Of a stretch of DNA of 64,000 nt, positions 16,985 to 41,832 are shown piece by piece (position 1 is the stretch's first letter; each line of letters opens with the position of its first letter). A program made the position numbers and the translations under genes. Location: positions 268,894,001 to 268,958,000 of the forward strand of contig OZ024740.1 of NCBI GenBank assembly GCA_964016885.1. Direction: 5' to 3'. The notes beneath the pieces are model-generated. The model was not told the origin of the DNA. It worked only from the letters and a program-made list of their open reading frames with translations, and did not search any database. Source of the stretch: Eledone cirrhosa (lineage: Eukaryota).

Positions 16985-19900
16985 ATGTTGAACCTAAACA
17001 GTGAAGTGGAGACTGGAATATCATGTGACAGCAGGTGCTCCCTGGCTCAGCAGCAGGGACCTGGCTGTCAATCAAATACTGCTGGTGTTGGAGGAAGAAG
17101 AAGAAGGAAAGGGACCAGAACCAACTGGACCAAAGAAATGAATAGAACTGTTATGCAATGTTACCTGAAGAGTAACCCCAAGGAAACGGATGCATAACAT
17201 CTGGAACGAGATTGGTCTATTTAAATTAGATGAACAAAAATTGGCCGGGAAGGCTCGGGTAATAAGAACTAATGGGTGGATAAGCGAGCTGGAACTGGAG
17301 GAACAGAGCAGAGATATTAGGTTGGAAATGGAGAGTGGAGTATGCCAGGAAAACGAGCCAGTGGGAAATGAAGGTGAAGAGGTTGAGAGAACGGAGGAAC
17401 CATCCGAAGCAGACAATGATCTGAATGCTGAAATGCTGAAAATGAATGCTGAAATAAATAATACCTGGAACAGAGATACGGCCGTTGAGGAGATGAATGC
17501 TGACGGGCTAGGACAAGATTTGGTTGATATCCTAAACTTAGTGGTATATGAAGAAACGACTGAATTGTCAAATCAGGGAAATGAGAAATGACATTGGAAA
17601 GCTTGAGTCCCTACTGAATGGGACACTAAAAAACATAGACACTAAAAATAGACTGGAAATAAAGTACAAAACTAGGAGGAAAAAGCTAAATATTATCATA
17701 GAGGAACTGAACCAACGCATTGTAGCAAAGAGTGCAAAAATGAGGCGATACGAGAGCAGAGTCAGTCAGTATAGACAAAACCGCATATTTGACAACAACC
17801 AGAAGATGCTGTTTGGAAAGCTTGAAGGGAAAGAAAGAGGCAACGACTTGATCCCTGAGGCAAAACAAAATAAGACAGTCTGGAGAGGAATATGAGAGCA
17901 GGATGTTAAACATAATGGCCAGGCAGAGAAAGTACAAAAGGAGATTAATGAACAGGCACACCAACAAACTGAATTGAGTATCACAGTTGAAACTCTTAAG
18001 GGGCAGGCCAAGAAACTAACCAACTGGAAATCACCAGGCCCAGATGGTGTGCAGGGGTATTGGATTAAAAATATAACATCCCTCCACTCGAAACTGACAA
18101 CCATGTTCAATGACTGCTTGATGTCAGGTGAGGTACAAGAGTGGTTGACAAAAGGTACCACGGTTATGGTAATGAAAGACCGAATCAAGGGTAATGATGT
18201 TACCAACTATAGACCTATCACATGTCTGTCCGTAATGTGGAAACTGTTGACAAACATTGTGTCTGAGGAAATCTACCATCACCTCCACACAAACAACTTG
18301 TTACCGGACGAACAGAAAGGATGCCGAAAGAAGTCCCGTGGTACAAAGGACCAGTTACTTACTGATAAGATGGTAATGAGGAATTGCAAGCGGAGACACA
18401 CTGGTCTGGCCATGGGATGGAAAGACTACAAAAAGGCATTTGACGTGGTGCCTCAATCTTGGATCACCAAAAGCCTAGAGATCTTCAAGGTGGCAGATAA
18501 CATCAGACAGCTGTTGGGCAAAAGTATGAAGTCCTGGAAAACAGAGTTAACATCAGCTGGAGAATCCTTGGGAGGCGTGAAGATCAAGAGAGGTATCTTC
18601 CAGGGAGATAGTCTCTCCCCTCTATTGTTTGTCCTTGCCCTGATGTCCCTGACCATTATACTGCGAAAAGTGAGAGCAGGATACAAGTTGGGAAAGGGAG
18701 AGTTTACCATCAACCACCTCCTCTTCATGGACGATCTTAAGCTCTTCTGGAAGAGTGAGAAGGAGTTGGATGGGCTTGTTGACACTGTCCGTATGTTCAG
18801 CAATGATATATGTATGCAATTTGGTATTAGTAAGTGTGGAGTCCTAGTGATGAAGAGGGGTAAATTGAGCAGAAGCAACGGAATCCAAATACCAACAGGT
18901 GAGATGATAATGGAAATTGACACTGAAGAAGGATACAAGTATTTGGGTGTTAGTAGGCTGATGAAATCAAGTACAAAAAGATGAAGGAATTGATAAGATC
19001 TGAATACATTCGGAGAATAAGGAGCGTATTAAAATCACATCTGAACAGTAGGAATGCCATAAGTGCAGTAAATTCCCGAGCTGTGTCTATTAGTAGGTAC
19101 AGTGCGGGAATTCTGAGATGGAATGTTGCTGAACAAAAAGAAATGAATAGGAAGACTAGGAAGCTACTGACTATCTACAACATGTCCCACAAGAGGAGTG
19201 ATGTCGATAGCCTCTACTTGAGAAGATCTGAAGGTGGAAGAGGTCTTATCAGCATAGAGGACTGTGTTCAGATGGAGAAAAACAACCTACACAAATACGT
19301 GACTGATAGTAAGGAGCCAATGCTCAGAATTGTACTGAAGGAGAGGACAATAGACCAGGGGATGTCCAAGGAGGAAATAACAACAATTAGAAAGAGCAGC
19401 CTTCATGTAAAATCCCTTCATAGTACCTTCTTTGAGAAAACTGAATTCAGAGATCTACAGACATGGAACTGGTTGAAAAGAGGAGACCTTAAAAAGGCTA
19501 CAGAAGGAATGCTAATGGCTGCGCAAGAGCAGGCCCTCAAAACGAAGTGGCTGAAACACCATATTGACAAGGAGGAGGCTAGCCCACTGAGCAGCATATG
19601 TGGAGAGAGAGAGGAGACTGTGGCTCACATTGTATCCGAGTGTAAACACCTAGCCCAGACTCACTATAAAGGCTGGAGACATGATGTGATGGGCAGGGTG
19701 ATCCACTGGCACCTATGCAAAGTAAACAATTTACCACATTCTGAGAAGTGGTATGAGCATAAACCAGAGTCAGTGATAGAAAACGATCAGGTGAAGGTGC
19801 TGTGGGATTTTAGGATACAGACGGACAAGAAATTGGAACACAATAGACCTGACCTGGTGGTTTTGGACAAGGAAAAATGATCGTGCCTGATTGTGGATGT

Positions 19901-20974: not shown

Positions 20975-23900
20975 TTACAGATATATACTCAGAGTAGGCC
21001 CATTCACTCGGGCCATTCTTGCTTCTCTCACCCATCTTTCAACAAAATGCTGGGAAGAGAGCACTTCCCTCTCTACTCTGATTTTCCTTTTCAAATGAAA
21101 TTTGAAAAAGTCAATCAGAGCATCACCGAAGAGGTAAGTGCTCGTCTTCAGCCCTTTCAAGCGTGTCCACCATACTATCTCTTTCGCCATGGCCACCAGA
21201 CAGATAAAAACTGCCTGCCCTTCCCGGCTAAAGGAGGAGGGCGGGGAAATCCTCACGATGGACTCAGATGATAGCCGGATCCGTCCTAAACGCGACAGCA
21301 GGTGTTCGACATGAACCCACAAGTCAGCAATTTTCGGACAATGGACGAGTGCGTGCAGGACGGTTTCGTCGCCCTGCGCGCATCTCGGACATGCCCGGCT
21401 GACGGCACCTCCATGCCTGTAGAGTTTATCCCGAACTGGCAAGGCTCCTCGGTAGCACTGCCAGGCCAGAGATTTCTGGAAGTTGTCCATAGGCCCCGGC
21501 CCGAAAGTTCTTCCGAAGAGATTGGCTAGTTGATTTTCGTCGACGCCTAGAGTTTCCCCAAGTACGTCGTCGCTCTTCCCCTCCACTAATCCTCTATAGA
21601 ACGCCGAGGTGGAGTTTCCACCGATCACATTGCCCGATTAGTCGAGGGCTGTGAGCGCCTGAAGACATTCCAGTCTCCAGACGCTCCCTCTCGGTCTTCG
21701 CTTGACCCAGGACTGCAGCTACGTCAAGGAAACGAGCTGGGGAAATACGCGTCTAGCAAACGGCGACCACACCTGATCACCGTCGAGGAAGAGGTGGAGA
21801 TGTCGTAGCCTGAGTACGTGCCTGCGCATCATCAGCCACGGCATGCCCAGCCCTCCACGTAGCGGGTGTTGTCAACAGATGGACCGCCTGACCATCGGAG
21901 CGCATCCCTTCCACAAAAAGCGAAAGAGCAAACGCTCCAGCGCAGTCAGGCGAGGCATAGGACAAGGTACGACAGTCAGGCGGTAGCAGATGACAGACGC
22001 GATGTACGCGTTAGCCACCTCCGCTCGACCTTTCAGGGATAGCTTCCTCTCCGCCCATTTCTGGGTGAGAGAAGCCACCCTGCTCGTCACCTCGTCCCAG
22101 TTTTTGTCCGTCTGGAGGTCCGGACAGAACCAGACCCCTAGCAATTTAACCGGTCCGTCCGTCCAGCGTCCGACGACGCTGTTGGACGGCATGGACCTGC
22201 CTCTCCAGGTGCCGAGCTGCAGGCCCACTGACTTTTCCTGGTTGTTCATTGCTCCTGTCACCGCTTCGTATTCTCTTAGTGTGGTGCCGATCGCCTCGAT
22301 GTGTTTGGCGTTCGACACCACTACGGTGACATCGTCCGCATATGCTGACACGGATCTTCCGCATCCTAGTTCGCGCGGGACGCCCCTCAACGTCTCCAGT
22401 TTGTGCAGTAATGGCTCGAGAGTCAATACGTACAAGAGGGACGAGAGGGGACATCCTTGGCGGACCGAGCGCATGATGTTGAACGGTTCCGACAGGTGAC
22501 CGTTCACTCTCACCACAGAGCAGATGTCGCTGTGCATGGCAGCGATCCAGCCTCTGAAGACGGGCCCAAAACCAGCCGCCCTCAGGACTGCCGCTAGGTA
22601 ACGATGGTCGACCCTATCGAAAGCTTTCGACTGATCTAAATTGATCAAGGACCCACCCGTGCCAGGTTCCCTAGCTACCCTCTCTACGATGTATCGCATG
22701 AGGTGGAGGTTGTCGTGGATGGATCTGTCGGGAATGGCGCATGTCTGCGCCTCTCCCACCAGACCACCAACGACAAGCGCCAACCTCTTTGCTAGCACCT
22801 TGGCCAAAATCTTGAACTCTGTGTTTAGCAGAGTTATGGGCCGGAAATTATCTATGTTATCCCCCTTGTTCGGATCCTTTCTCAGCAGCGCCACCGCTCC
22901 TCGGCTCACAGAACTGGGAATTCTCCCGTTCTGTTGCCAGTTGCAGTAGACGTCCGCCAAGAGGCGTCCGAACAAGTCTGGCATCTGTACGTAAAGTTCA
23001 TAGGGCAGACCATTCAAACCAGGCAATTTACCCCTTGTGCAGCCAGTCATTGCCTCCCTTACTTCAGCGGCTGTTATCGGCTTTTCGCAACACTTCGCCT
23101 CAGTGGCCGAGAGCCGCGGCAGTCCGTCGAGGTAGACACTAAAGTCCATCCCTCGACCCGGCCCACCGCTTCCCGCGAACAGCTGAGCGAAGTGTCGCTG
23201 AAAAGCTTCACACATTTGCCCGGAATCGAGTAGCATGCGCCCGTCGTGGTCCACCAAAGACCGGATCGTGGCTTTGTTGCCACGACGCGCCTCCGCCAAT
23301 CGGGCCCATTGAACGGCTTTCGTCCCCTCGTGTCTAAGAGCACGCACCCTTGCTTTGACAACGCAGCCTTCGTGCTTTGCATTGAAGAATTGGTCAAGGG
23401 CCAATTTCGCCGCAAGCACGTCGGTCGCAATGCCTTTGCTAAGCGCCTCGTCTAATTTTCTAACTAGTTCTCCCTCTTCTCTATTTTTCTCTATTGCTAA
23501 AGCCTTACTAAACCTAATGGATTCTATTCTAATCGCTCTTTTCAGAGCAAACCACCACTTGTTGTTGACGATGGCCCCCGTCAACGCCCGCTTAACTAGT
23601 TCTCTAATCCGGTCTCTGTAGGCCTTGCGCGCTGGTAAGGACGCGTTTAGCTTCCAGTAGCCGGGTCCTCGTCTATGAAGCCTATCTAAGTCAAGCACAC
23701 AGATCACGAATTTGTGGTCCGTGTAGCTAACTATCTTGAATTGTGGACAGCCTATGCTAGACCTATCTATTTCCCTACAAAATACTCTATCTAGATATGA
23801 TCTGGATGACCCTATGCGATTTGTCCAAGTCCACATTGGCACATTCGGGAAATCCAATCGGTACCTGTCAGACAGTTCAAAACGCCTGAGCAGGTTGGTG

Positions 23901-24393
23901 AGGCTCTTGCACCCTCCACCCCTATCCGCTAATCCCACACAGTCCCAGCGTGCATCTAAGATCCCGTTCCAGTCGCCCACTAACACTAAAGAGCGGGACG
24001 TTCCAAGAAAGGTCTCCAGACGCCGGAAGAAATCAGGCCGCCCTGCTCCTGTCGGGGCATAGACGGCCACTAGCCTGAAAGCTTGCCCGTCTCCGCTGGT
24101 CACGTCCAGCACCACCAGCTTACCCTCTGGGTCCAGGAAGATGGCCCGTATGGCGAGATCCAAACCTCTCCGAAAAAGCACAGCAACTACTCCCCCGATC
24201 CAGGACGGCTGGGAGATGCGTACACATCGTAGCCGCCGAAGATTGGTGCGAAGGCCCGTGCTTCGGAGATTCTGGTCTCGCTGATGGCCACTACATCTAT
24301 GTTTAGTGACCTGAGGTCGTTGAGCAGGTGACCTTGCTTCCATGACGACCCCAAGCCACGCGCATTTATGCTGCCTATTCTGAGTGAGGTCAT
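20975..24393 (-). pseudogene. LINE ORF2: AP endonuclease, reverse transcriptase, zinc finger (frameshifted)
   Basis: SINARGL, ISET, AVYAP, GDWN, SYLD, TDH (APE); NFRPITLLN, DQSKAFDRV, VRQGCPLS, AYADD (RT); CPRC..ETVLHALVHC. Frame breaks near 24.2 kb and 21.6-21.9 kb. Confidence 0.93.
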
Positions 24394-24428
24394 GTTTAAA
24401 ATAGAGTGGAAAAGATGGGAAAGACCAC

Positions 24429-26500
24429 TTACCGTACTTTTGGTAGAGGAGGGATGGTTTTTACATCCCTTTTCACTTGATCGTCCCTTCGGCTGGTCGT
24501 CGGCTCTTCTATGAGTATGTCCGAATATACTCTTCGGTTGATAGTTCCTCCTAGGTCTCTGAAATCACCAACTGCGTTGGGGAATTTCGTTTTAATGTTT
24601 GTGTATTGTTTCTGTGCTATTTTTAGCAGTCTTATGTTAGTTGGCGTTTTGATTGGTGCTGGTATTATGTAGTCGTGTTGTGAAATGTCTGTGTTCAATT
24701 ATGTAAGTCATTAGTTTCTTGTTGTGTGTATTTATTGCCGTGCATTTGTTTTTCTGGGGGTGGGGTGTGGTTCTGCTATTTTCTTGTCGTTGTTGCTGGG
24801 TGTGTGTGTTTTGTTGTTGTGTTTGCGATGTTGGTGCTTGTGGTGGTGGTGTTTAAGGTGTTGTTGGCGGTGGGGTTGTCGCCGGTGGTGATGGTGGTGC
24901 TAGTGTGGGTGGTGATGGTGTTGGTGGTGTTGCTGCTGTGAGTCTCTTTGCAGTAGACTTTACCCTTTTCTCATTTCTTTCCTCCCTTTTCAAAGGCGAC
25001 GATGCGCTACTTCTGCGTTTGTGCCTTCTTACGACCTTTTGCCATCCCTCTCCCACCTCACACTCCATGTCTGATTCTGTGAGGTCGGGGAGGGGTACCA
25101 GCTCCACTCTTTCACTTGTTGTTGTTGGTGATGTTTGCACTGGAGTCTCTCTTGCAGCTGCATTTGGTATTGCTGTTGTTGTTGTTAATACTTCCACTGC
25201 TGCTGCTGTTTTTGATTTCCGTGGCATGGGTATGGGTGCCACGGACCTATCGTTCCTGGTTGCCGCTTGTCCTGTTGCTGGTAGCCGTGGAGCCGGTTTC
25301 GGAAGGAGGGAGGTTTTCTCCTTTCTCAGGGTCTTCTCGTTGCAGAAGGCTCTGAGGTGAGTCTTCGATCCACAGCGAAAGCATTTCGGGCGTTTGCCCT
25401 CAACACTTATGGGCAGTTGAGTGCCGTTATCGAAGTCTATCACATCCGGGATGCACTCCTGGTTGGTTTGGATTAACATCTCAATGGAGGTGCCGACCCA
25501 ATCTTCTCTTACTTTTTTCTGTACTTGCAGTACAGTTGTTTTGTCCTCGATTCCGACGAGGACAGACGCGGCCAGCCAAGAAGGGGCCATCCCGGGGGGG
25601 GGGGGGGGTCAGTTTGACCCTCACAATTTTTTGCCCGCAGTAGGAGGGCACCAACACCATTTCCTCGCTCCTTAGGGTCACTAGGGATTGAGCCTTTGCC
25701 TCCTGGGGTGTGGCAAAATGTACGTCTACGGTGGCATATTTCTTGCCTCGGGTGATGTGCGTTTTCCGCTGCCACACAGACCCCAAGGCTTTTTGTATTT
25801 GAGCCTCTGTGGCTCTTTCAACCCTACGGGATTCTGTACTTACTGTACGGTACGTGACCGTACAGTGCTGTTGGGTTTCGAAAAATTTTTCCGCTGCCTT
25901 GCAGATTGCTCGGTGTCCACTTTTTGTCACCATCTTCTTCGCTTCCTCTAATTCCTCATTTGTTATGAGGATTGTTTCCAGGTTCTTCGCGATACCTGCA
26001 AACGAGATTGGTTTTTCTTTGCTGCTGTTGTTGTTGTTGTCGTCAGAGCTGCTGTTACTTTTGTTGTTGCTGCAGGTACTACGACTACTGCCGCCGCCGC
26101 TGTTGCTGTGGTTGTTGTTGTTGTTGTTGCTGCTGCTAATGCTGTTGTTGTTTATGCTGCTGCTGATGCTGTTGCGGCTGCTACTGTTGTATTCATTGTC
26201 ACTGTTGCTGTTGTTATTACGGCTGCTACTGCTATTATTCCTGACGTCAGACGAATGAAATAGGTTTTCGTATTTCCCGCACACCTGTTTCGTCGTTGTC
26301 GTCGTCGTCGTGGAGAAATCTTGCACGCTTTGCACGAGACTTTTCTTTTCTGTCGTCGCTTGCGAAAGAGAAGGGAGGGAGAGAGACACATTTAAAGAAG
26401 GGAGGGAGAGAGACAATCTTCTCCCTGCTGTAGTGACGATTGAGGAAGAAGAAGACGGAATGAGTGGGAGTGGCCTATGAAAATTCTTTTTCGTAGCCAT
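24429..26500 (-). pseudogene. LINE ORF1, gag-like with CCHC zinc knuckle (frameshifted)
   Basis: ATG at 26500, Asn/Ser low-complexity N-terminus, CFRCGSKTHLRAFC knuckle, Thr/Pro-rich tail. Frame break at the G15 run 25594-25608 and again near 24.7-24.85 kb. Confidence 0.85.
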
Positions 26501-26716
26501 GTTGTTTTTTTTGTTTAAAATAAATATTGGGCACAAAACCCCAATAAGCAGTTATTTAACCCCGAAGAGCCAAATAACGGGCAGAAAGACCCCTCTCACG
26601 AGGAGGAGGGTGTTTTTGTCTACAAGTTGGTTAAAGTTTTAAACAATTTACAATTGTTATAGCGTTCAAAATTTACAATACCTTACAAAGCCGAGCCTCC
26701 GTCAACCATAGCATTC

Positions 26717-26770
<54 letters not shown>

Positions 26771-28329
26771 TGACACGAGAGTGCAAGATAAGGAGAGGGT
26801 GAAAATTAACCGATACCAGGATTTAGTTTGTCCCCTTTATTGTTTGTCCTTACCCTGATATCCCTCTCCGTCATATTGCGAAAAGTGAAAGCAGGATACA
26901 AGGTGGGAAGAGGCGAGATTACCATGAACCACTCCTCTTCATGGACGATCTTAAACTCTTTGGGAAGGGTGAGAAGAAGTTGGATGTACTTGTTGCCACT
27001 GTCGGAATTTTCAGCAATGATTTATGTATGGAATTTGGTGTTCATATGAGTCGAAGCCTAGTGATGATGAGGGGAAGCAACGGAATCCAGATACCAACAG
27101 GTGAGATGGTAAGGGAAATTGACACTGAAGAGGGATACAAATATTTAGGTGTTCTGGAAGCAGATGACATCAAGAACAAAAACAAAATGAAGGAATTGAT
27201 TAGATCTGAGTACATAAGGAGAGTAAGGAACATACTAAAATCACATCTAAATAGTAGGAATGTCATAAGTGCAGTAAATTCCCGAGCTGTGTCTATTATT
27301 AGGTACAGTGCGGGAATTCTGAAATGGAATGTTCCTGAACAAAAAGAAATGGATAGGAAGACTAGGAAGCTAATGACTATCTACAACATGTTCCACAAGA
27401 GGAGTGATGTTGATAGACTCTACTTAAAGAGATCTAGGTGGAATAGGTCTTATCAGCATAGAGGACTGTGTTCAGATGGAGAAAACAGTTTGCACAAAAT
27501 TTTACTGAACTGGAAAACAACAGACCAGGGGATATCCAAGGAAGAAATAACAAGGAGGAAGAGCAACCTTCATGAAAATTCCCTTCATAGCACCTTCTTT
27601 AAAAAAACGGAATTCAAAGATCCAGTAGGAGACCTTAAAAAAGCTACAGAAGGAATGCTAATGGCTGTGCAAGCGCAAGCCCTCAGAACGAAGTGGCTGA
27701 AACACCATATTGACAAGGAGGAGGCTAGCCCACTGTGCAGGATCTGTGGAGAAAGAGAGGGGACTGTGGCTCACATTGTATCCTAGTGTAAACACCTAGC
27801 CCAGACTCACTATAAAGGCTGGAGATGTGATATGATAGGCAGGTTGATTCACTGGCACCTATGCAAAGTAAACAATTTACCACATTCTGAGAAGTGGTAT
27901 GAACATAAGCCAGAGTCGGTGAAGTTAAGGTGCTATGGGATTTTAGGATACAGATGGACAAGAAATTAGATCGTGCCTGCTTGTAGATGTAGCCTGCTCA
28001 GTTGACACGAGAGTGCAAGAAAAGGAAAGGGAGAAAATTAACCGATACCAGGATTTACAGTGGGAGTTACAAAGGATTTGGAGCTGCCATGAGATCAAGG
28101 ACGTGCCGATTGTCATATGTGCACGAGGTACTATATTAAAGAGTTTCCCAGGATGGTTAAAGAAGAATAGTCCAGCGAAGTTTTTTGGAAGTCTTCAAAA
28201 GTCATGTTTGCTGGGAATAGGAAGAATTCTCCGATACGTCCAGAATGTCTGAGGCTGCAGGTAGCGGCTTGATATTAATTTCAACAAACTTTCCAGTTAA
28301 ATAACGTTAATGACTGAGACTCAAAGAAC
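26771..28329 (+). mobile_element. 5'-truncated R4/Dong-like LINE copy
   Basis: FMDDLKLF, YKYLGV, CRICGEREGTVAHIVS and the RLE region; closely similar to 18610-20233 including the 3'UTR; ends in AAT-like repeats. Confidence 0.92.
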
Positions 28330-29207: not shown

Positions 29208-29246
<39 letters not shown>

Positions 29247-29383
29247 CCACTATATATACATTCATTTATATATCGCTATTTCAGAGCACCAATTCTAATT
29301 TTAAATTTCTGCTTGACCGGCAGCCGCTCTGTATAATCAGTCCCTGATTATTAATAGAATTCTATAAGAATCAAATATTCATG

Positions 29384-29478
29384 ATTTTCAGCAAACAGGT
29401 GGAGTACTTAGCTTTGATAAGTACCAAAAAGTACGAAACAGGGCTCTGTCAGCTTTATCTCCCCTGTTTACTGAAAAT
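29384..29478 (+). ncRNA. Type I hammerhead ribozyme (U3-A8 core) with extended stem I
   Basis: AUUUUCAGCAAACAGG U GGAG UACUU AGCU UUGAUAA GUAC CAAAAA GUAC GAAAC AGGGCUCU GUC AGCU UUAU CUCC CCUGUUUACUGAAAAU; predicted cleavage after C29450. Confidence 0.9.
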
Positions 29479-30429
29479 TTAAAGTAAGGGAGACTGTCGC
29501 TACTCTAAAACAGAAACGTAAGGTCTTCGAAATGCTTTTAATTAAGCATACAGTGTATTGCAAAATCCAATATATATACATTCATTTATATATCGCTATT
29601 TCAGAGCACCAATTCAAATTTTCAATTTCTGCTTGACCGGCAAACGATCTGTATAATCAGTCCCTGATTATTACTAGAATACTATTAGAATCAAACATTC
29701 ATGATTTTCAGCAATCAGGTTCAAGTACTTAGCCTAGATAAATACCAAAAAGTACGAAACAGAGCTCTGTCAGCTTTATCTCCCCTGTTTGCAGAAAATT
29801 TAAAGAAGGTGAGACTGTCACTACTCTAAAACAATAGCGTAAGGGCTTCGAAATGCTTTTAATTAAGCATACCGTGTATTGCAAAATACACTATATATAC
29901 ATTCATTTTAATATCGCTATTTCAGAGCACCAATTCTAATTTTCAATTCCTGCTTGACTGGCAACCGCTCTGTATAATCAGTTCCCGATTATTACTAGAA
30001 TTCTATAAGAAACAAACATTCATGATTTTCAGCGTAAGGTCTTCTAAATGCTTTTAATTAAGCATACAGTGTGTTGGAAAATACACTATATATACATTCA
30101 TATATATATCGCTATTTCAGAAAACCAATTCTAATTTTCAATTTGTACTTCACCAGCAACCGCTCTTTATAATCAGTTCCTGATTACTACTAGAATTCTA
30201 TAAGAATCAAACATTCATGATTTTCAGCAAACAGGTGGGGTACTTAGCCTTGATAAGTACCAACAAGTACGAAATAGAGCTCTGTTAGCTTTATCTCCCC
30301 TGTTTGCTAAACATTTAAAGTAAGTGAGACTGTCACTACTCTAAAACAATAGCGTAAGTTGTTCGAAATGCTTTTAATTAAGCAGTCAGTGTATTGCAAA
30401 ATCCACTATATATACATTCATATATATAT

Positions 30430-30467
<38 letters not shown>

Positions 30468-30468
<1 letters not shown>

Positions 30469-30843
30469 ACAGTGCAGAGAAGTACGGAAAACATCGGCCT
30501 CGGGATGGTGTCTACATTTTGGTCTTATACAAAACATTCGTCGTAGATTACCAGGTTTTTTATCCGTGCGAAGAAAATCAATTCTTTATCTCGAAATAAA
30601 TACCTTTGTTTATATTTACTAATTGAATATATATTTATATATATATATATATAATTATATATTCGTGTACAGATATTTTTGCATACACGATTAGTAAATA
30701 TAAACAAAGGTATTTATTTCGAGATAAAGAATTGATTTTCTTCGCACGGATAAAAAACCTGGTAATCTACGACGAATGTTTTGTATAAGACCAAAATGTA
30801 GACACCATCCCGAGGCCGAGGTATTCCGTACTTCTCTGCACTG

Positions 30844-30846
<3 letters not shown>
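30468..30846. repeat. Fold-back element (~155 bp arms) at the orientation switch of the array
   Basis: AACAGTGCAGAGAAGTACGGAA...TATTTACTAAT mirrored by ATTAGTAAATA...TTCCGTACTTCTCTGCACTGTT; (TA)n on both sides. Confidence 0.93.
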
Positions 30847-30917
<71 letters not shown>

Positions 30918-33900
30918 ATATATAAATGTATATATAGTGGATTTTGCAATACACTGACTGCTTAATTAAATGTTTGATTCTTATAGAATTCTAGTAATAA
31001 CCAGGAACTGATTATACAGAGCGGTTGCTGGTTAAGCACAAATTGAAAATTAGAATTGGTTTTCTGAAATAGCGATATATCTATGAATGTATATATAATG
31101 TATTTTGCAATACACGGTATGCTTAATTAAAAGCATTTCGAAGCCCTTACGCTATTGGATTAGAGTAGTGACAGACACACCTACTTTAAATTTTCTGCAA
31201 AGAGGGGAGATAAAGCTGACAGAGCTGTGTTTCGTACTTTTTGGTATTTATCAAGGCTAAGTACTTGAATCTGATTGCTGAAAATCATGAATGTTTGATT
31301 CTTATAGTATTCTACTAATAATCGGGAACTGATTATACAGAGCGGTTGCCGGTCAAGCAGAAATTGAAAATTAGAATTGGTGCTCTGAAATAGAGATATT
31401 AAAATGAATGTATATATAGTGTATTTTGTAATACACTGTATGCTTAATTAAAAGCATTTCGAAGCCCTTACTCTATTGTTTTAGAGTAGTGACAGTCTCA
31501 CTTACTTTAAATTTTCAGCAAACAGGGGAGATAAAGCTGACAGAGCTCTGTTTCGTACTTTTTTGTATTTATCAAGTCTAATTACTTCACCTGATTGCTG
31601 AAAATCATGAATGTTTGATTCTTATAGAATTCTAGTAATAATCGGGAACTGATTATACAGAGCGGTTGCCGGTCAAGCAGAAATTTAAAATTAGAATTGG
31701 TGCTCTGAAATAGCGATATTAAAATGAATGTATATATAGTGTATTTTGCAATAATCTGTATGCTTAATTAAAAGCATTTCGAAGCCCTTACGCTATTGTT
31801 TTAGAGTAGTGACAGTCTCACCTTTTTTAAATTTTCTGCAAACAGGGGAGATAAAGCTGACATAGCTCTGTTTCGTACTTTTTGGTATTTATCAAGGCTA
31901 AGTACTTGAACCTGATTGCTGAAAATCATGAATGTTTGATTCTTATAGAATTCTAGTAATAATCAGGAACTGATTATACAGAGCGGTTGCCGGTCAAGCA
32001 GAAATTAAAATTAAAATTGGTGCTCGGAAATAGCGATATATAAATGAATGTATATATAGTGTATTTTGCAATACAATGTATGCTTAATTAAAAGCATTTC
32101 GTAGACCTTACGCTATTGTTTTAGAGTAGTGATAGTCTCACTTACTTTAAATTTTCAGCAAACTGCGAAGAAAAAGCTGACAGAGCTCTGTTTCGTACTT
32201 TTTGGTACTTATCAATGCTAAGTACTCCACCTGCTTGCTGAAAATCATGAATGTTTGATTCTTATAGGATTCTAGTAATAATCAGGAACTGACTATACAG
32301 AGCGGTTGCCGGTCAAGCAGAAAATGAAAAAGGGAATTGGTTCTCTGAAATGGCGATATATATATGAATGTATATATAGTGGATTTTGCAATACACTGTA
32401 TGCTTAATTAAAAGCATTTAGAAGACCTAACGCTGAAAATCATGAATGTTTGATTCTTATAGAATTCTAGTAATAATCGGGAACTGATTATACAGAGCGA
32501 TTGCCGGTCAAGCAGAAATTGAAAATTAGAATTGGTGCTCTGAAATAGAGATATTAAAATGAATGTATATATAGGGTATTTTGTAATACACTGTATGCTT
32601 AATTAAAAGCATTTCGAAGCCCTTACTCTATTGTTTTAGAGTAGTGACAGTCTCACTTACTTTAAATTTTCAGCAAACAGGGGAGATAAAGCTGACAGAG
32701 CTCTGTTTCGTACTTCTTGGTATTTATCAAGGCTAAGTACCTGAACCCTATTGCTGAAAATCATGAATGTTTGATTCTTATAGAATTCTAGTAATAATCG
32801 GGAACTGATTATACAGAGCGGTTGCCGGTCAAGCAGAAATTACAATTAGATTTGGTGCTCTGAAATAGCGATATATAAATGAATGTATATATAGTGTATT
32901 TTGCAATACACTGTATGCTTAATTAAAAGCATTTCGTAGACCTTACGCTATTGTTTTAGAGTAGTGACAGTCTCACTTACTTTAAATTTTCAGCAAACAG
33001 CGGAGATAAAGCTGACAGAGCTCTGTTTCGTAATTTTTGGTACTTATCAATGCTAAGTACTCCACCTGCTTGCTGAAAATCATGAAAGTTTGATTCTTAT
33101 AGGATTCTAGTAATAATTAGGTACTGACTATACAGAGCGGTTGCCGGTCAAGCAGAAAATGAAAAAGGGAATTGCTGCTCTGAAATAGCGATATATATAT
33201 ATATATGAATTTATATATAGTGTATTTTGCAATACACTGTATGCTTAATTAAAAGCATTTCGAAGACCTTACCTTATTGTTTTAGTGTAGTGACAGTCTC
33301 ACTTACTTTAAATTTTCAGCAAACAGGGGAGATAAAGCTGACAGAGCTCTGTTTCGTACTTTTTGTTACTTATCAAAGCTAAGTACTCCACCTGTTTGCT
33401 GAAAATCATGAATATTCTATTCTTATAGAAATCTATTAATAATCAGGGACTGATTATACAGAGCGGTTGCCGGTCAAGCAGAAAATGAAAAAGGGAATTG
33501 GTGCTTTGAAACAGCTATATATATATATGAATGTATATATAGTGTATTTTGCAATACACTGTATGCTTAATTAAAAGCATTTAGAAGACCTTACGCTGAA
33601 AATCATGAATGTTTGATTCTTATAGAATTCTAGTAATAATCAGGAACTGATTATACAGAGCGGTTGCCGGTAAAGCAAAAATTGAAATTAGAATTGGTGC
33701 TCTGAAACAGCGATATATAAATGAATGTATATATAGTGTATTTTGCAATACACTGTATGCTTAATTAAAAGCATTTCGAAGCCCTTACGCTATTGTTTTA
33801 GAGTAGTGACAGTCTCACCTACTTTAAATTTTCTGCAAACAGGGGAGATAAAGCTGACAGAGCTCTGTTTCGTACTTTTTGGTATATATCAAGGCTAAGT

Positions 33901-36493
33901 ACTTCACCTGATTGCTGAAAATCATGAATGTTAGATTCTTATAGAATTCTAGTAATAATCAGGAACTGATTATACAGAGCGGTTGCCGGTCAAGCATAAA
34001 TTGAAATTAGAATTGGTGCTCTGAAACAGCGATATATAAATGAATGTATATATAGTGTATTTTGCAATACACTGTATGCTTAATTAAAAGCATTTCGTAG
34101 ACCTTACGCTATTGTTTTAGAGTAGTGAGCGTCTCACTTACTTTAAATTTTCAGCAAACAGCGGAGATAAAGCTGACAGAGCTCTGTTTCGTAGTTTTTG
34201 GTACTTATCAAGGCTATGTACTCCACCTGCTTGCTGAAAATTATGAATGTTTGATTCTTATAGGATTCTAGTAATAATCAGGAACTGACTATACAGAGCG
34301 GTTGCCGGTCAAGCAGAAAATGAAAAAGGGAATTGAAGCTCTGAAATAGCGATATATATATATGAATGTATATATAGTGTATTTTCAATACACTGTATGC
34401 TTAATTAAAAGCATTTCGAAGACCTTACCTTATTGTTTTAGTGCAGTGACATTCTCACTTACTTTAAATTTTCAGCAAACAGGGGAGATGAAGCTGACAG
34501 AGCTCTGTTTTGTACTTTTTAGTACTTACCAAGGCTAAGTACTCCATCTGCTTGCTGAAAATCATGAATATTTGATTCTTATAGAATTCTATTACTAATG
34601 AGGGACTGATCATACAGAGCGGTTGCCGGTCAAGCAGGAAATGAAAAAGGGAATTGGTGCTCTGAAATAGCTATATATATATATGAATGTATATATAGTG
34701 TATTTTGCAATACACTGTATGCTTAATTAAAAGTATTTAGAAGACCTTACGCTGAAAATCATGAACGTTTGATTCTTATAGAATTCTAGTAATAATCGGG
34801 AACTGATTATACAGAGCGGTTGCCGGTCAAGCAGAAATTGAAAATTAGAATTGGTGCTCTGAAATAGCGATATTAAAATGAATGTATACATAGTGGATTT
34901 TGCAATACACTGTATGCTTAATTAAAAGCATTTCGAAGCCCTTACGCTATTGTTTTAGAGTAGTGACAGTCTCACCTACTTTAAATTTTCTGCAAACAGG
35001 GGAGATAAAGCTGACATAGCTCTGTTTCGTACTTTTGGGTATTTATCAAGGCTAAGTACTTCACCTGACTGCTGAAAATCATGAATGTTTGATTCTTATA
35101 GAATTCTAGTAATAATCAGGAACTGATTATACAGAGCGATTTCCGGTCAAGCAGAAATTGAAATTAGAATTGGTGCTCTGAAATAGCGATATATAAATGA
35201 ATGTATATATAGTGTATTTTGCAATACACTGTATGCTTAATTAAAAGCATTTCGTAGACCTTACGCTATTGTTTTAGAGTAGTGACAGTCACACTTACTT
35301 TAAATTTTCAGCAAACAGCGGAGATAAAGCTGACAAAGCTCTGTTTCGTACTTTTTGGTACTTATCAAGGCTAAGTACTCCACCTGCGTGCTGAAAATTA
35401 TGAATGTTTGATTCTTATAGAATTCTATTAATAATCAGGGACTGATTATACAGAGCGGTTGCCGGTCAAGCAGAAAATGAAAAAGGGAATTGGAGCTCTG
35501 AAATAGCGATATATATATATGAATATATATATATGAATATAGTGTATTTTGCAATACACTGTATGCTTAATTAAAAGCATTTCGAAGACCTTACCTTATT
35601 GTTTTAGTGTAGTGACAGTCTCACTTACTTTAAATTTTCAGCAAACAGGGGAGATAAAGCTGACAGAGCTCTGTTTCGTACTTTTTGTTACTTATCAAAG
35701 CTAAGTACTCCACCTGTTTGCTGAAAATCATGAATATTTGATTCTTATAGAATTCTATTAATAATCAGGGACTGATTATACAGAGCGGTTGCCGGTCAAT
35801 CAGAAAATGAAAAAGGGAATAGGTGCTCTGAAATAGCTATATATATTTATGAATGTATATATAGTGTATTTTGCAATACACTGTATGCTTAATTAAAAGC
35901 ATTTAGAAGACCTTACGCGGAAAATCATGAATGTTTGATTCTTATAGAATCTAATAATAATCAGGAACTGATTATACGGAGCGGTTGCCGGTCAAGCAGA
36001 AATTGAAAATTATAATTGGTGCTCTGAAATAGCGATATAAATTGAATGTATATATAGTGTATTTTGCAATACACTGTATGCTTAATTAAAAGCATTTCGA
36101 AGACATTTCGCTATTGTTTTAGGGTAGGGACAGTCTCACTTACTTTAAATGTTCAGCAACATGGGACATAAAGCTGACAGAGCTCTGTTTTGTACTTTTT
36201 AGTACTTATCATGGCTAAGTACTCCATCTGCTTGCTGAAAATCATGAATGTTTGATTCTCATAGAATTCTAGTAACAATCAGGAACTGATTATACAGAGC
36301 GGTTGCCGGTCAAGCAGAAAATGAAAATTAGAATTGGTGCTCTGAAATAGCGATATATATATATGAATGTATATATATATGTATTTGCAATACAATGTAC
36401 GCTTAATTGAAAGCATTTCGAAGACCTTACCTTATTGTTTTAGTGTAGTGACAGTCACACTTACTTTAAATTTTCAGCAAACAGGGGAGATAA

Positions 36494-36538
36494 AGCTGAC
36501 AGAGCTCTGTTTCGTACTTTTTGGTACTTATCAAAGCT
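36494..36538 (-). ncRNA. Type I hammerhead ribozyme core, intact copy
   Basis: Minus strand AGCU UUGAUAA GUAC CAAAAA GUAC GAAAC AGAGCUCU GUC AGCU. About 14 further variants at ~31214, 31534, 31854, 32175, 32690, 33010, 33336, 33852, 34171, 34492, 35009, 35328, 35658 and 36172. Confidence 0.9.
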
Positions 36539-37654
36539 AAGTACTCCACCTGTTTGCTGACAATCATGAATGTTTGATTCTTATAGAATTCTAGTAATAA
36601 TCGGGAACTGATTATACAGAGCGGTTGCCGGTCAAGCAGAAATTGAAAATTAGAATTGTTGCTCTTAATTAAAAGCAATACCTGCCCTGTTTGCTGAAAA
36701 TTGAAAGTAAGTGTGACTGTCACTACTCTAAAACAATAGCGTAAGGTCTTCTAAATACTTTTAATCAATGCTTTTTAATACAGTGTATTGCAAAATACAC
36801 TATATATACATTCATATATATATCGCTATTTCAGAGCACCAATTCTAATTTTTAATTTCTGCTTGACCGGCAACCGCTCTGTATAATCAGTTCCTGATTA
36901 TTTCTAGAATTCTATTAGAATCAAACATTCATGATTTTCATCAAACAATCGGAGTACTTAGCTTTGATAAGTACGAAAAAAGTACGAAACAGAGCCTCTG
37001 TCAGCTTTATCTGCCCTGTTTGCTGCAAATTTAAAGTGAGACTGTCACTACTCTAAAACTATAGCGTAAGGTCTTCGAAATGCTTTTTATTAATCAAACA
37101 GTGTATTGCAAAATACACTGTATATACATTCATATATATATCGCTATTTCAGAGCACCAATTCTAATTATATATATATACTAGCAGATTTACCCGGCGTA
37201 GCTCTGCGTTTGAAATTATGCTAAGAATATACAGCTAGGAAGTAAAAGAAGAACATTATTTGTCCCCAACCTGTCAAAATAAGCAGAAGTCTTCAATAAT
37301 TAATGCAAACAAATATTTAGTGCAATCTTTGTACACATAAAACTATTTCTGATAATGAAGGAAAACACTGAACAGGATGTAGTTATATAAAATATAAAGA
37401 CGTTGCAAATCTGTAAAAAAAACAGGCAGTTTTGCTAAATTACAAAAAGTTGTAATGAAAGCAGAGTTGTATACAAACAAAAAAGCAATGAGAGTAGAAT
37501 AAGAGAAAATCTATTTTTTGAGAGCATCCTTTGCTGTGTATGGTTAATTTTTTAACTTATAATCTAAAATATCCTGCATGACATCTTCATTGGTATGTTT
37601 TGTAATGAGTAAGGTGAAGTCAAGGCAGAGCTGTAATAAGTTTTTTTGTTAACA

Positions 37655-40600
37655 CTAAAGCACTTCAGGATAGACGATATTCTTTGTTTTTCTTTTCGGA
37701 ACAAACGCAAAGAGATTATCTCGACAGCCAACTCGTGAGCAGGCAACGTAGAATTGTCCGTGCGAAAAGCAAGGTTCATCCAAGTGAATTCCAGCGACGG
37801 ACAGAGTTTGACCTTGCGACTTGTTTATGGACATCGCAAAGGCAACACGAAGGGGAAATTGGGTTCGGCGAAAGGAGAAGGGAGTTTCCACGCCTGATGT
37901 AGTCAGACTAATTTTTGTTATTATCACAACCTCGCCTTTTCCACATCCGGATAGAATGTTAGCGTCAATACTAAGTGGAGACAGTTTTTTAATCACAAGG
38001 CGTGTACCATTGCATAGTTTTGGAGGAGTGATATTTCTCAGCAAAATAACTGGCGTTCCCTCTTTCACAACCAATGTATTAGGAGGTAAACCAGGAGGAT
38101 TTAAATAATTTAGAAATTCAACTGGATAGTTGACCGCATCCTGTGGATCACATACAGTATCAATAGATTTATATATCCGTGGACATCCAGGAAGAAGCTG
38201 AAGAAGCTGATCGTTAATACAGCTAACCGTGATATTTTGGGGTGCAAGAATGGCTCTTTCGCATAGCCAATCAAGATTCGTATAGTTATCACGCAAGTTC
38301 GGGAATACACTCGCCTTGAGATCATCGACAGTTTCAACTACATTGCAGATGTGATCAATTGCTGTGCGTCCACCTGTATCCGGATGTAGGTTACCCTCTC
38401 CTATTGTAAGAATGTCTCCAGAAAATGTGATGACAGAGGGTCCCCATGCAGCCTTGCACGCATGTTGGTAGTTAGTCTTAATGATGTCACTTGTCGCCAC
38501 AATGGTGAAGACTCAAGATATGCATTTACCGCATCTGCTCTTGTTCCTTTCGGTATTATAGGAAGAGTCTGTCTGAAGTCTCCTGATAGCAGAAGGGTGA
38601 CACCCCCCATAACATCACTACAATCCCGTATGTCTTGAAAAGCCCTGTCTAGTGCATCAAGAGCACCTTTGTGCGCCATTGTGCACTTATCCCAAACAAT
38701 AAGGTGACACCTTCGCAGCAGATGAGCCCTGTTAGAGTCTTTGGTGATATGACAAGTAGGAGTTTCCAATTTTGCCAAATCAAGGGGCAATTTAAAAACT
38801 GAATGTGCCGTTCTTCCACCAGGAAGCAAAGTTGCTGCGATTCCAGAGGACGCAACTGCTATTGCTATGTCCTTATTCTGTCTAACCTTTGCAAGAGGTT
38901 TAGTAACGAAAGTTTGTCTGTCCTCCCTGGAGCATCGAGGAAAAATATGCCACCTCTTGTTTGAAATACTAATTTAGTAATGGTGGTATAAGCCAGTCGC
39001 TGATCAGCTACAAGTTTTGGCTCATTATCTGTGACGTAGATGGCAGTGGATTGGCAGTATCAGTAGAGGGTCGGACGCGATGCTTTCTAGCATAGAGTTA
39101 CGTCCCTTTACGGACTGAGTTCAAATGCCTCCAAGGTTAACTTTGCCTTTCATCCTTACGGGGTCGATAAAATAAAGTACCAGTAATGTACTGGGTAATT
39201 GCTGGCCTTGTGCCTAAAGTAGAAACAATTATCTGTGACGTAGAGGCCGAGATCATGGATGTCATAAGAAGTCTCCTGTATGATATCTGTGGGAAGTTTG
39301 TTTGAGTCTGTGCGATGAGTTTCTGGTAAACCGTAGTCACGTAAAACCTTTCCTCCAATCAGAGCTAACTTGTCCTCAATATCAATGAGAGCTCTGTTGT
39401 ATAATTCATTACTAAAGCCGACCTCTATTTCTGGAAGCATCAATTTTGCTTGGTGTCTGTAGCTGTCTGTTAGTTCATCCCTATATTTCATCCACAAGGA
39501 CAGAGGATCAGATAAGTTGCACGTGTGCAAAAGTACCGCAAATACATTTTTTAGGCTGGCAGGTGAATGTGAAAGAGCAACTTCCGCCATCGTTGCATCC
39601 CACTGCGAACCATCTTCCAGCAATCCACGCCTCAAACATGCCTTTGGGTATGTTAGAAGAACTTGTCCGTCTAACGTTCAGAGATCATTCAAGCAGGTAG
39701 GTCCTCTGACCTCATGTAGTAGCATGCTAAGATGGAAGCACTCGTGTTGGTTTGGGGGCACAGTATAAACTCTGTCCAAGCACTCGTTGAATTTGAGGCC
39801 TGGATAACCTTCGACACACTGTCCTGTTTTTCTTCATTTCCATGTATTTTTGTCCCAGGTATAGTAAGATGGGACTTGTGGATATAGTAAGGTTTTAGCA
39901 AATGGATCTTCTTGACATAGTTTACAGAAAGCGGTAAGAGTAGTATCCTTTGGTTCTTGTGCAACTGAGCAGCTGATGCATTCGTAAAATATACTCCCTG
40001 ACCGTTCTCCAGGTGCACTTGGAGTTTTTGAACAGCAGGATGCGTTGATGTATAAAAAATCCGAAAATCCGCCAGAACGCTTCATTAGAGTTAATGTATA
40101 TTCCAGTTTGGTACTGGGCCACTTCATCTCGGCTGTTTTCCCGAAGTAATCCAAACGTAGCAGCATCAGAGCCTTTAGTAATGTACTTACAAATGTATTT
40201 TATAGATTTAATCGAATTACAGTATTCTACGTTTATGTGTGCATCAAGAATCTTTATAAGGAGTGGATTATATGGAACAACTCATCTGTTGTCAACCTCA
40301 TGTTTGCCAACCCTTGCTGTGAATCCACCATCTTCGGGTCTTCTCCGGCGATATAGTGGGTATCTGTCATGGCCAGTCTGAGTGTCCTTAAGGAACTGTC
40401 GGGGAAATTTAGTTGAGCACTTAGACTTGTCCTTAACACACGGTAGGTTGTTGAGAAATCCATGTCCACATGGGCCAGCATCTTGAAATTTTTCGAAAAA
40501 GAACCGAGGACTTCCTGTGAAAGATGAAGGCAGGATGCACAACAGTCCAATACTATCAGGATCTGCATCATTGTTCATTCCATCACGAAGGTGAATGTAA

Positions 40601-41832
40601 GTGTCACAGCGAAGTTGTTTCTGATTAAGTCGAATGAAGCATAATCTCTCGGACTCCATTTTTGCGAACATGTCAACTGCAAATTGATTGAAGAGGTCTT
40701 GTGATCGGTGCAGCTGGTTGAAGCAGTTGTCGCAGACCATGAATCGGAAAGCGTAAAAATCCATACACGTGACAATTTTCGTGGTATGCTCATCTTGGTT
40801 TGTGGAATTAATTTGATGAATTCCGAAATGGTATCCATCCTCACCATAAACAAATAATAGCGGATACTGGAGTGCGTCGTAAGATCGATGGGTTTCACTC
40901 ATTCTGTTAAGGCTGTTGTCTCGTCGCTTGATAATAATGTCTCTCTTGTTGTGCTGCTCTCCACTAATAACGATGGCTACCTCATTACAAGTAGGTGCAT
41001 TATACCGGCCCGCATGCTCCGCAGATGGTCTCTCATCAGCGTAAATGATGATATCGTAATTTGGCGAAGGTGCTTCTTCTGAAGAATACTTGAAGCTTTT
41101 AATGTAGCTATTGTTAGAGTGAAGCATGTCTTGGAGGTCAATCAAGAGTTCCAGTTTAGTGTCTGAAGTGTACGATTGCCTTAGATCTGCTTGCTGATGA
41201 CAGTTAACAATAAAGTAAACCTGTAAAAGTTGTGGCTCTTCAGTAGGCAACGGTTGCAGTGATCCAATGAGATGATACACCTGGCCCTGTACTTTGAAAG
41301 TCGGCATAAATCCATCTTCCTTCAGACGTTTTGCACCGAAAGAGGTCATTTGAAACGCAATGTTGTACTGTCGGATATGCTTCAGAAAATCACGTGATTG
41401 TGAATGCTTGCTTGTTAGAAGCATCTGGAGAGGTTGCGGTGGTTCCCTAAGGGTGGGTAAATTAACCTTACCGTTGGAGCAGCACATTCCAACTGATCTC
41501 CCCCCTCCCTCCCCCACACACACTTTTTAGCTTTACAATGTTGGCAAATATTTTACATGGCATATATTTGAATATCAGGATGGATTTGATAGTTTACATA
41601 AGGGTCATAATTAACTGCCTTAAGGTACCATCGTGAGCGTGATGCCTTTGAAATACTCCGCGATAAAGCTCTACGTTGAGCGTTAACGCTCAGCGGCGGA
41701 CAAAGATGTTGCAATAACTGTACTCACTGCATTTAGCGATTGTCTATTTTCGGTTATCGGTGGAGCGTCATTTACATGCATTGTTTTCTTCGACCGAGAG
41801 CCAATATGTGCATACTTTCTTTTACGGGGCAT
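37655..41832 (-). pseudogene. Helitron RepHel (HUH replication initiator plus PIF1-family helicase), disrupted
   Basis: CCSNGKV, YNIAFQMTSFG, SYDALQYPLLF, LPSSFTGSPR, KYICKYITKGSD, GGRTAHS, GDFRQTLP, LCNGTRL, QFPLRVAFAMSINKSQGQT, FSHGQFYVACSRV. Multiple frameshifts and a SINE insertion. Confidence 0.95.
39041..39227 (+). mobile_element. tRNA-derived SINE inserted into Helitron ORF
   Basis: Same SINE family; 17 bp TSD ATTATCTGTGACGTAGA (39024-39040 and 39228-39244). Confidence 0.94.

Follow-up and report, generated by a model that had tools for sequence, protein, structure and literature searches.

The closest described relatives of the element analysed here are the non-LTR retrozymes of metazoans, which are low-GC tandem repeats of ~300 bp, dispersed in thousands of copies, with a type I hammerhead that has a 4-bp helix II and loop-loop contact residues (Cervera and de la Pena 2020, PMC7229834). 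The general metazoan type I design combines a 6-bp helix I and a 4-bp helix II with conserved loop nucleotides (PMC4209133, PMC7229834). In the Schistosoma Sm-alpha hammerhead, the internal loop is UCCA:GUAC; its first U pairs with the 3' A of the loop CAAAUA, and its last C is extrahelical (PMC2632901). The U3-A8 core is a documented natural and active hammerhead variant (PMC3088659), and ~1,300 minimal U3-A8 hammerheads have been reported in Schistosoma Penelope-like elements (PMC4209133). Among retrozymes, those of axolotl are dimer-dependent and those of coral and mussel are active as monomers; how animal circles are blocked is left open in the accessible part of that report (PMC7229834). 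Penelope-like elements insert as inverted 5'-truncated copies and partial tandems, with a 30-40-bp tail at one end and microsatellite (TA)n targets (10.1101/2021.04.23.441226). The proposal that they mobilise retrozymes has so far been argued from co-occurrence and terminal-repeat homology (PMC7229834; 10.64898/2026.07.22.740005), and the word 'tail' is absent from the accessible text of the latter.

Here we analyse a 64,000-nt stretch of the Eledone cirrhosa genome (the window), in which an earlier note had flagged a hammerhead with a Schistosoma-like architecture. We assign a probability of about 0.8 to the reading that this copy belongs to a non-autonomous, Penelope-mobilised non-LTR retrozyme with ~320-nt units and a full-size type I U3-A8 hammerhead. 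By all sequence criteria tested, the unit classifies as a non-LTR retrozyme: non-coding tandem units in the 170-470-bp range, each with a type I hammerhead, low in GC and dispersed. It differs from the metazoan retrozymes in its U3-A8 core and in a 4-bp stem III that lies within a 10-12-nt palindrome, and its monomer is predicted to be self-blocking, whereas most metazoan circles are predicted to leave the hammerhead free to fold (PMC7229834). With the Schistosoma Penelope-like (Cercyon) hammerheads (PMC4209133) and other natural U3-A8 cores (PMC3088659) it shares the compensatory core pair and the Penelope-like link, although those motifs are minimal and mostly single, and the unit carries a full-size motif in tandem non-coding repeats. 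As in the double hammerheads of newt and axolotl satellites (PMC7229834, PMC6155905), a palindromic loop III allows an extended helix III between two copies; helix III has 1-2 bp in those satellites, whereas stem III of the unit has 4 bp and its dimer dependence is a prediction.

Layout of the flagged hammerhead

The stem and loop elements named in the earlier note, including AGCU/AGCU, GGAG/CUCC and loop II CAAAAA, are all present at the positions given there (Table 1). The distal helix, put at ~16 bp, exists, with 15 of 16 pairs in the flagged copy because of an A at 29470; the 3' arm quoted for it is that of the family majority and not of this copy. The proposed internal loop UACUU/UUAU does enclose the contact loop (UCUC:GUAC in Schistosoma notation), but it also takes in upper helix I, where U2.6 pairs with A29457 across the U.U/extra-U irregularity. 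GUAC matches the 5' strand of the Sm-alpha internal loop, and U29458 corresponds to Sm-alpha IL1.U1. The catalytic core, on which the note was silent, reads UUGAUAA (U3-A8) and not CUGAUGA. Loop III is a 12-nt palindrome in the family majority, and the flagged copy has G, not A, at 29442. With a three-way junction, an open helix I and helices kept by covariation, the motif is a type I hammerhead; compared with C3UGANG8A-GAA, A15.1-U16.1 and H17, it agrees as the documented U3-A8 variant, the literal C3 and G8 being absent.

Table 1. Features of the flagged copy, the array and its neighbours in the window
Feature	Positions	Strand	Remarks
Type I hammerhead, extended stem I (flagged copy)	29384-29478	+	One of 3 intact among 19 array copies
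Distal helix, 5' arm	29384-29399	+	Partner 29463-29478
GGAG (29401-29404) and UAC (29405-29407)	29401-29407	+	GGAG pairs with CUCC 29459-29462
Helix I, 5' strand UUAGCU	29408-29413	+	AGCU at 29410-29413
Core N3-A9, UUGAUAA	29414-29420	+	U3 29414, A8 29419
Helix II GUAC/GUAC with loop II CAAAAA	29421-29434	+	Loop II at 29425-29430
GAA, then stem III with self-complementary loop region	29435-29449	+
Predicted cleavage site, GUC then A1.1	29450-29451	+	Placed by hammerhead consensus (PMC7151607)
Helix I, 3' strand with one extra U, then U29458, then CUCC	29451-29462	+	AGCU at 29451-29454
Distal helix, 3' arm	29463-29478	+
First array block, ~320-bp units	29244-30429	+	3 ribozyme copies and one 195-bp unit without ribozyme
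First block, 3' end			Unit position ~29, in (TA)n
Main array block	30914-36671	-	15 ribozyme copies; 3' end in (TA)n, unit position ~29
Inverted 5' block	36679-37168	+	1 ribozyme copy; ends at unit position ~55 ('tail') before (TA)n
Recurrent 195-bp units without ribozyme	29836-30228, 32237-32623, 33398-33791, 35723-36111		Higher-order repeat
~155-bp sequence and inverted copy	30469-30845		Between facing array blocks; 153/155 identical; (TA)n-flanked
Broken Helitron (Rep and Pif1 domains)	37180-41526	-	CTAG end abuts TA flank of array
LINE-type reverse transcriptase frame	17896-19880	+	One of the three LINE-type frames has an endonuclease domain
LINE-type reverse transcriptase frame	21872-26551	-
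LINE-type reverse transcriptase frame	26827-27786	+

The flagged copy folds with z = -4.98, a value that none of 200 shuffles matched. The opposite strand scores better still (z = -6.87), and the test therefore does not discriminate between the strands. Its best Rfam match, from a 121-base stretch, is RF02275 Hammerhead_HH9 (24.6 bits, E 0.00018), which it spans over the full model length and with the same loop II; as the gathering score of this family is 52, it does not rank as a member by score, and the whole 64-kb window holds no Rfam match at gathering score. The earlier argument against a chance motif match nevertheless stands, on the strength of the fold, of genome-wide core counts against zero controls and of helix covariation, and we consider it very probable that the flagged copy represents a real hammerhead lineage.

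Compensatory change in the helices and the core

We aligned the flagged copy with 48 others (n = 49), up to seven per subfamily from nine subfamilies, chosen from 159 non-redundant matches by core-matching patterns; the alignment omitted 14 of 62 listed copies, including the divergent family F. Pairing was found in 95.2% of 1,409 cells, compared with 31-46% in slid registers, and 18 of 29 pairs showed two-sided change (helix I 3/4, helix II 4/4, distal helix 9/16); because the 49 copies are related and were picked by core pattern, these cell counts overstate the number of events. G.U variants are common on the hammerhead strand, and RNAalifold, unprompted, returned the hammerhead together with the distal stem. 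On a tree built from the flanks only, the distal stem underwent at least 8 distinct Watson-Crick-to-Watson-Crick changes on at least 3 branches, given as a minimum count; this tree is poorly resolved among subfamilies A, B, H and I and one flank is non-homologous, and only minimum change counts were used. The extended stem I, whose conservation across copies the earlier note had named as a check, is thus conserved, its distal helix covarying at the pairs counted above. Together, these data argue that the helices, the extended stem I and the 3' A of loop II are under constraint in a type I hammerhead lineage. Family F (L139, L151, L152, L155) is a more distant U3-A8 group with a perfect 6-bp helix I, U1.7 and either GUAC or AUAU before helix I, and is the closest Sm-alpha look-alike seen.

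Across the 3.0-Gb genome, a first-look search with the flagged 95-mer gave 2,313 candidates. Exact searches for the U3-A8 core with the flagged stem II returned 1,303 matches (reversed-pattern control, 0), and the canonical C3-G8 core with the same stem II returned none in the genome. With stem II freed, U3-A8 cores numbered 4,257 (reversed controls, 0), as against 21 with U3.G8 and 24 with C3.A8, mismatched pairs that amount to ~0.5% each and are scattered over subfamilies. A sister family homologous to the unit has a C3-G8 core (71-77% identity over long matches; 2,634 candidates), and the 3-8 pair therefore covaries within one homologous group. The unit repeat is also high-copy in two sequence runs (contigs of unrecorded type). 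A metagenome scan gave 25 loci, most without a hammerhead fold; L223, L228 and L229 (also L225, L227 and L245) have a U3-A8 core, a CAA..A loop II and a short self-complementary stem III, with a helix I of 4-6 bp in three of them, so the variant exists outside this genome. The canonical-core pattern had 9,645 genomic matches, the first 100 of which are dominated by a tandem 466-469-bp family (L091-L120, L163); the type I hammerhead of this 467-bp family has a canonical core, a perfect 6-bp helix I and a 1-bp stem III.

A probable Sm-alpha-type contact in a common metazoan design

The 3' A of loop II is present in 49/49 aligned copies and, genome-wide, in 4,257 matches against 66; positions L4 and L5 (4 and 5 of the loop) vary between amplified subfamilies, and 76 genomic matches read exactly CAAAUA. 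The U that follows helix I after the 2.6 pair is found in 46/49 copies, in 22 of the 49, including the flagged copy, only with one extra U looped out. Helix I accordingly has a 6-nt register in 25/49 and the extra U in 22/49, among them subfamily A, that of the window, in which a U.U pair adds to the irregularity. The earlier note had treated UAC as the docking motif, but only part of it is conserved: U in 47/49, A in 40/49 and C in 24/49 (G in 23/49), the C being present in the flagged copy and in 18/19 array copies.

Like Sm-alpha, the unit has a six-nt loop II CAA..A, GUAC six nt before the core and, once the extra U of subfamily A is looped out, a U directly after helix I. It differs from Sm-alpha in its 3' half-loop (UCUC in place of UCCA), in having G for the extrahelical C in 23/49 relatives, in the extra U in helix I of subfamily A, in its U3-A8 core and in the 16-bp distal helix. 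The latter had been counted as part of the tertiary contact; it sits beyond the contact loop and probably acts as a clamp of the unit RNA instead. An Sm-alpha-type contact in the family is likely. The contact geometry of the proposed Schistosoma-like architecture and its contact residues, apart from the C of UAC, are kept, but a special link to Schistosoma is not indicated, because the same geometry is usual in metazoan retrozymes (PMC7229834, PMC4209133). The flagged architecture, being standard for animal retrozymes, is by itself ordinary; the contact is plausible and constrained, and the flagged subfamily represents a less regular version of the common metazoan type I design.

A decaying array

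The flagged copy is one of 19 ribozyme copies in a ~320-bp tandem array at 29244-37174, arranged in +/-/+ blocks. A covariance model built here, with the flagged copy in its training set, scores the same 19 copies at ≥83 bits and otherwise detects only opposite-strand shadows of ≤32 bits in the window. The core is kept in 10/19 copies, and the core together with all three junction helices in 3/19; the full 4-bp proximal helix I is missing in 14/19, and G10.1 has changed to A in 7/19. The 16 full units diverge by 5.0% in the ribozyme junction, by 6.1% in the distal stem and by 5.1% elsewhere. No selection within the array is seen in this comparison, and the similar divergence inside and outside the ribozyme indicates neutral decay: constraint acts on transposing source lineages and not on this locus. 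The higher-order repeat formed by the 195-bp units points to local DNA-level amplification of the array. The inverted ~155-bp pair between the facing blocks is either another microsatellite-targeting element or a foldback duplication.

The scarcity of intact copies and the even divergence of junction and surroundings, together with the extra U and the U.U pair in helix I, would also fit a catalytically weakened subfamily A that travels as a passenger, copied from uncleaved multimers and no longer in need of cleavage. We consider this improbable: helix II has gone on changing through compensated steps in subfamilies with the same extra U, the 3-8 pair and the loop II A are unbroken in every amplified subfamily, and any transposon copy is expected to decay neutrally once inserted.

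Predicted monomer and dimer folds

We then consider whether each copy could be a fast, tertiary-stabilised monomer of the Sm-alpha or coral kind that needs no partner to be active at ~1 mM Mg2+. The 4 pairs of stem III exceed the 1-2 bp of dimer-dependent metazoan hammerheads (PMC4209133), the contact residues are conserved, U3-A8 cores are reported to be active (PMC3088659), and co-transcriptional cleavage at 0.1-0.8 per min is reported for monomers of invertebrate retrozymes (PMC7229834). In ViennaRNA predictions of the flagged monomer, however, a blocking 7-bp helix between the 5' strand of helix I plus U3-U4-G5 and the 5' arm of stem III plus loop III is favoured by 2.1 kcal/mol and reaches a probability of 0.89, compared with 0.03 for helix III, and the same helix exceeds 0.5 in 40/49 copies. 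Moreover, stem III remains palindromic or near-palindromic through its sequence changes, and helix I is irregular in the 22 copies noted above. As ViennaRNA ignores tertiary and Mg2+ stabilisation, a gap of 2-3 kcal/mol does not exclude monomer activity, and fast monomer cleavage, by the flagged copy or by the copies in general, remains somewhat doubtful in our view. The activity at physiological Mg2+ that the earlier note expected of a single copy is not supported, given the U3-A8 core, the irregular helix I, the predicted blocked core and the damage to 16/19 array copies.

When two copies were folded together, the double hammerhead, with its core free and stem III extended through the palindrome, was the minimum-free-energy structure in 24/49 cases (6/6 for subfamily A); the other 25/49 did not give a clean double hammerhead. 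The family may thus cut mainly when two copies pair. In one-unit circles, the blocking helix exceeded 0.5 in 16/27. Two of 16 palindromic tetraloops give the lock, and both are used by the family (at mean probabilities of 0.76 and 0.65, with the remaining 14 at ≤0.30; 31 copies). The 467-bp canonical family, used as a control, formed the blocking helix in 0/24, yet its core was also half-paired.

These folds are compatible with a built-in switch, which we put forward tentatively and hold to be rather unlikely: a single unit, as a circle, would be locked off and a tandem transcript freed as a docked double hammerhead. For the lock, loop III would mimic the 3' strand of helix I and pair with its 5' strand and U3-U4-G5, a mechanism we rate no higher. 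In tandem, with similarly low odds, the same palindrome would pair between copies and free the core of the double hammerhead. Against such a switch, subfamilies B and D partly break the lock, the core of the 467-bp control family is half-paired as well, and the lock may stem from one ancestral local duplication.

Penelope-type insertion ends

Of 102 non-redundant loci, 62 have outward-facing 3' ends on both sides; in 49 of these 62 two-ended loci, the two ends fall in different stretches of the unit, positions 18-30 and 50-64, and 124/164 3' ends abut TA repeats. The insertions of the unit therefore have the form described for Penelope-like elements (10.1101/2021.04.23.441226), with a tail here of ~26-34 nt, and the 30914-37168 block of the window shows the same form. 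The 3' ends are fixed 143-177 nt past the predicted cleavage site, which is intact in the copies; from this we infer that the template would be a circle or an uncleaved multimer.

C-terminal GIY-YIG frames preceded by a cysteine motif are numerous in the genome and are Neptune-like by the description in 10.1101/2021.04.23.441226; a minimal U3-A8 hammerhead lies downstream in 13 of the 30 GIY-YIG loci examined. In two Neptune-like Penelope families (L172:2211, L173, L174, L178, L182, L187, L190, L191, L193, L195, L198; and L185, L192), such hammerheads follow the GIY-YIG frame and the elements terminate in (TA)n; in one of the two families, helix II has a U.U pair at its base. None of the 30 GIY-YIG loci (of 150 listed among 10,596 candidates) proved to be an autonomous partner whose terminus is homologous to the unit. 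The one match, in L172, was considered as a partner terminus and rejected, since it represents a C3-G8 sister-family copy that inserted separately.

The Rep and Pif1 frames at 37655-41526 adjoin the array and the opposite strand folds as well, as might be expected of a DNA-level hairpin repeat of the Helitron or of a satellite with a chance likeness to a hammerhead. The array, however, lies outside the CTAG 3' end of the Helitron (37180-37183), dispersed copies have Penelope-type ends, and the covariation covers the non-helical 3-8 pair while the single-stranded core is kept. A Helitron origin of the array is thus largely refuted, and we regard this explanation, satellite included, as very improbable.

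Proposed mechanism and significance

At the level of sequence, structure and core pair are kept by compensatory change, contact residues are kept, and the insertions have Penelope-type ends in (TA)n. For the Penelope-mobilised retrozyme, this suggests a tertiary-docked type I hammerhead that works within a retrozyme, possibly as a dimer. Tandem units would be transcribed, and neighbouring copies would join via their palindromic stem III to form a double hammerhead in which the 3' A of loop II docks on the U that follows helix I. Cleavage would follow GUC, and the monomers would be ligated to circles. A Penelope-like reverse transcriptase/GIY-YIG protein would then initiate copying at the fixed place 143-177 nt downstream of the cleavage site, on a template that extends across this site. 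Selection would act on transposing source copies, and the array of the window would be a decaying insertion, with the flagged copy among its few intact units.

What is new is the radiation of U3-A8 cores, the insertion ends of Penelope type and a possible monomer-off/dimer-on switch. We found no description of the family of the unit in the literature searched on U3-A8 retrozymes; the supplements of PMC7229834 and 10.64898/2026.07.22.740005 could show such variants. With more than 4,000 full-size U3-A8 hammerheads, this radiation is one that CUGANGA descriptors and Rfam thresholds miss, and the C3-G8 sister family provides a natural control for the cost of the core swap. The insertion ends offer direct structural support for the mobilisation of retrozymes by Penelope-like elements. 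The switch, if true, would explain why the circles of animal retrozymes do not cleave themselves.
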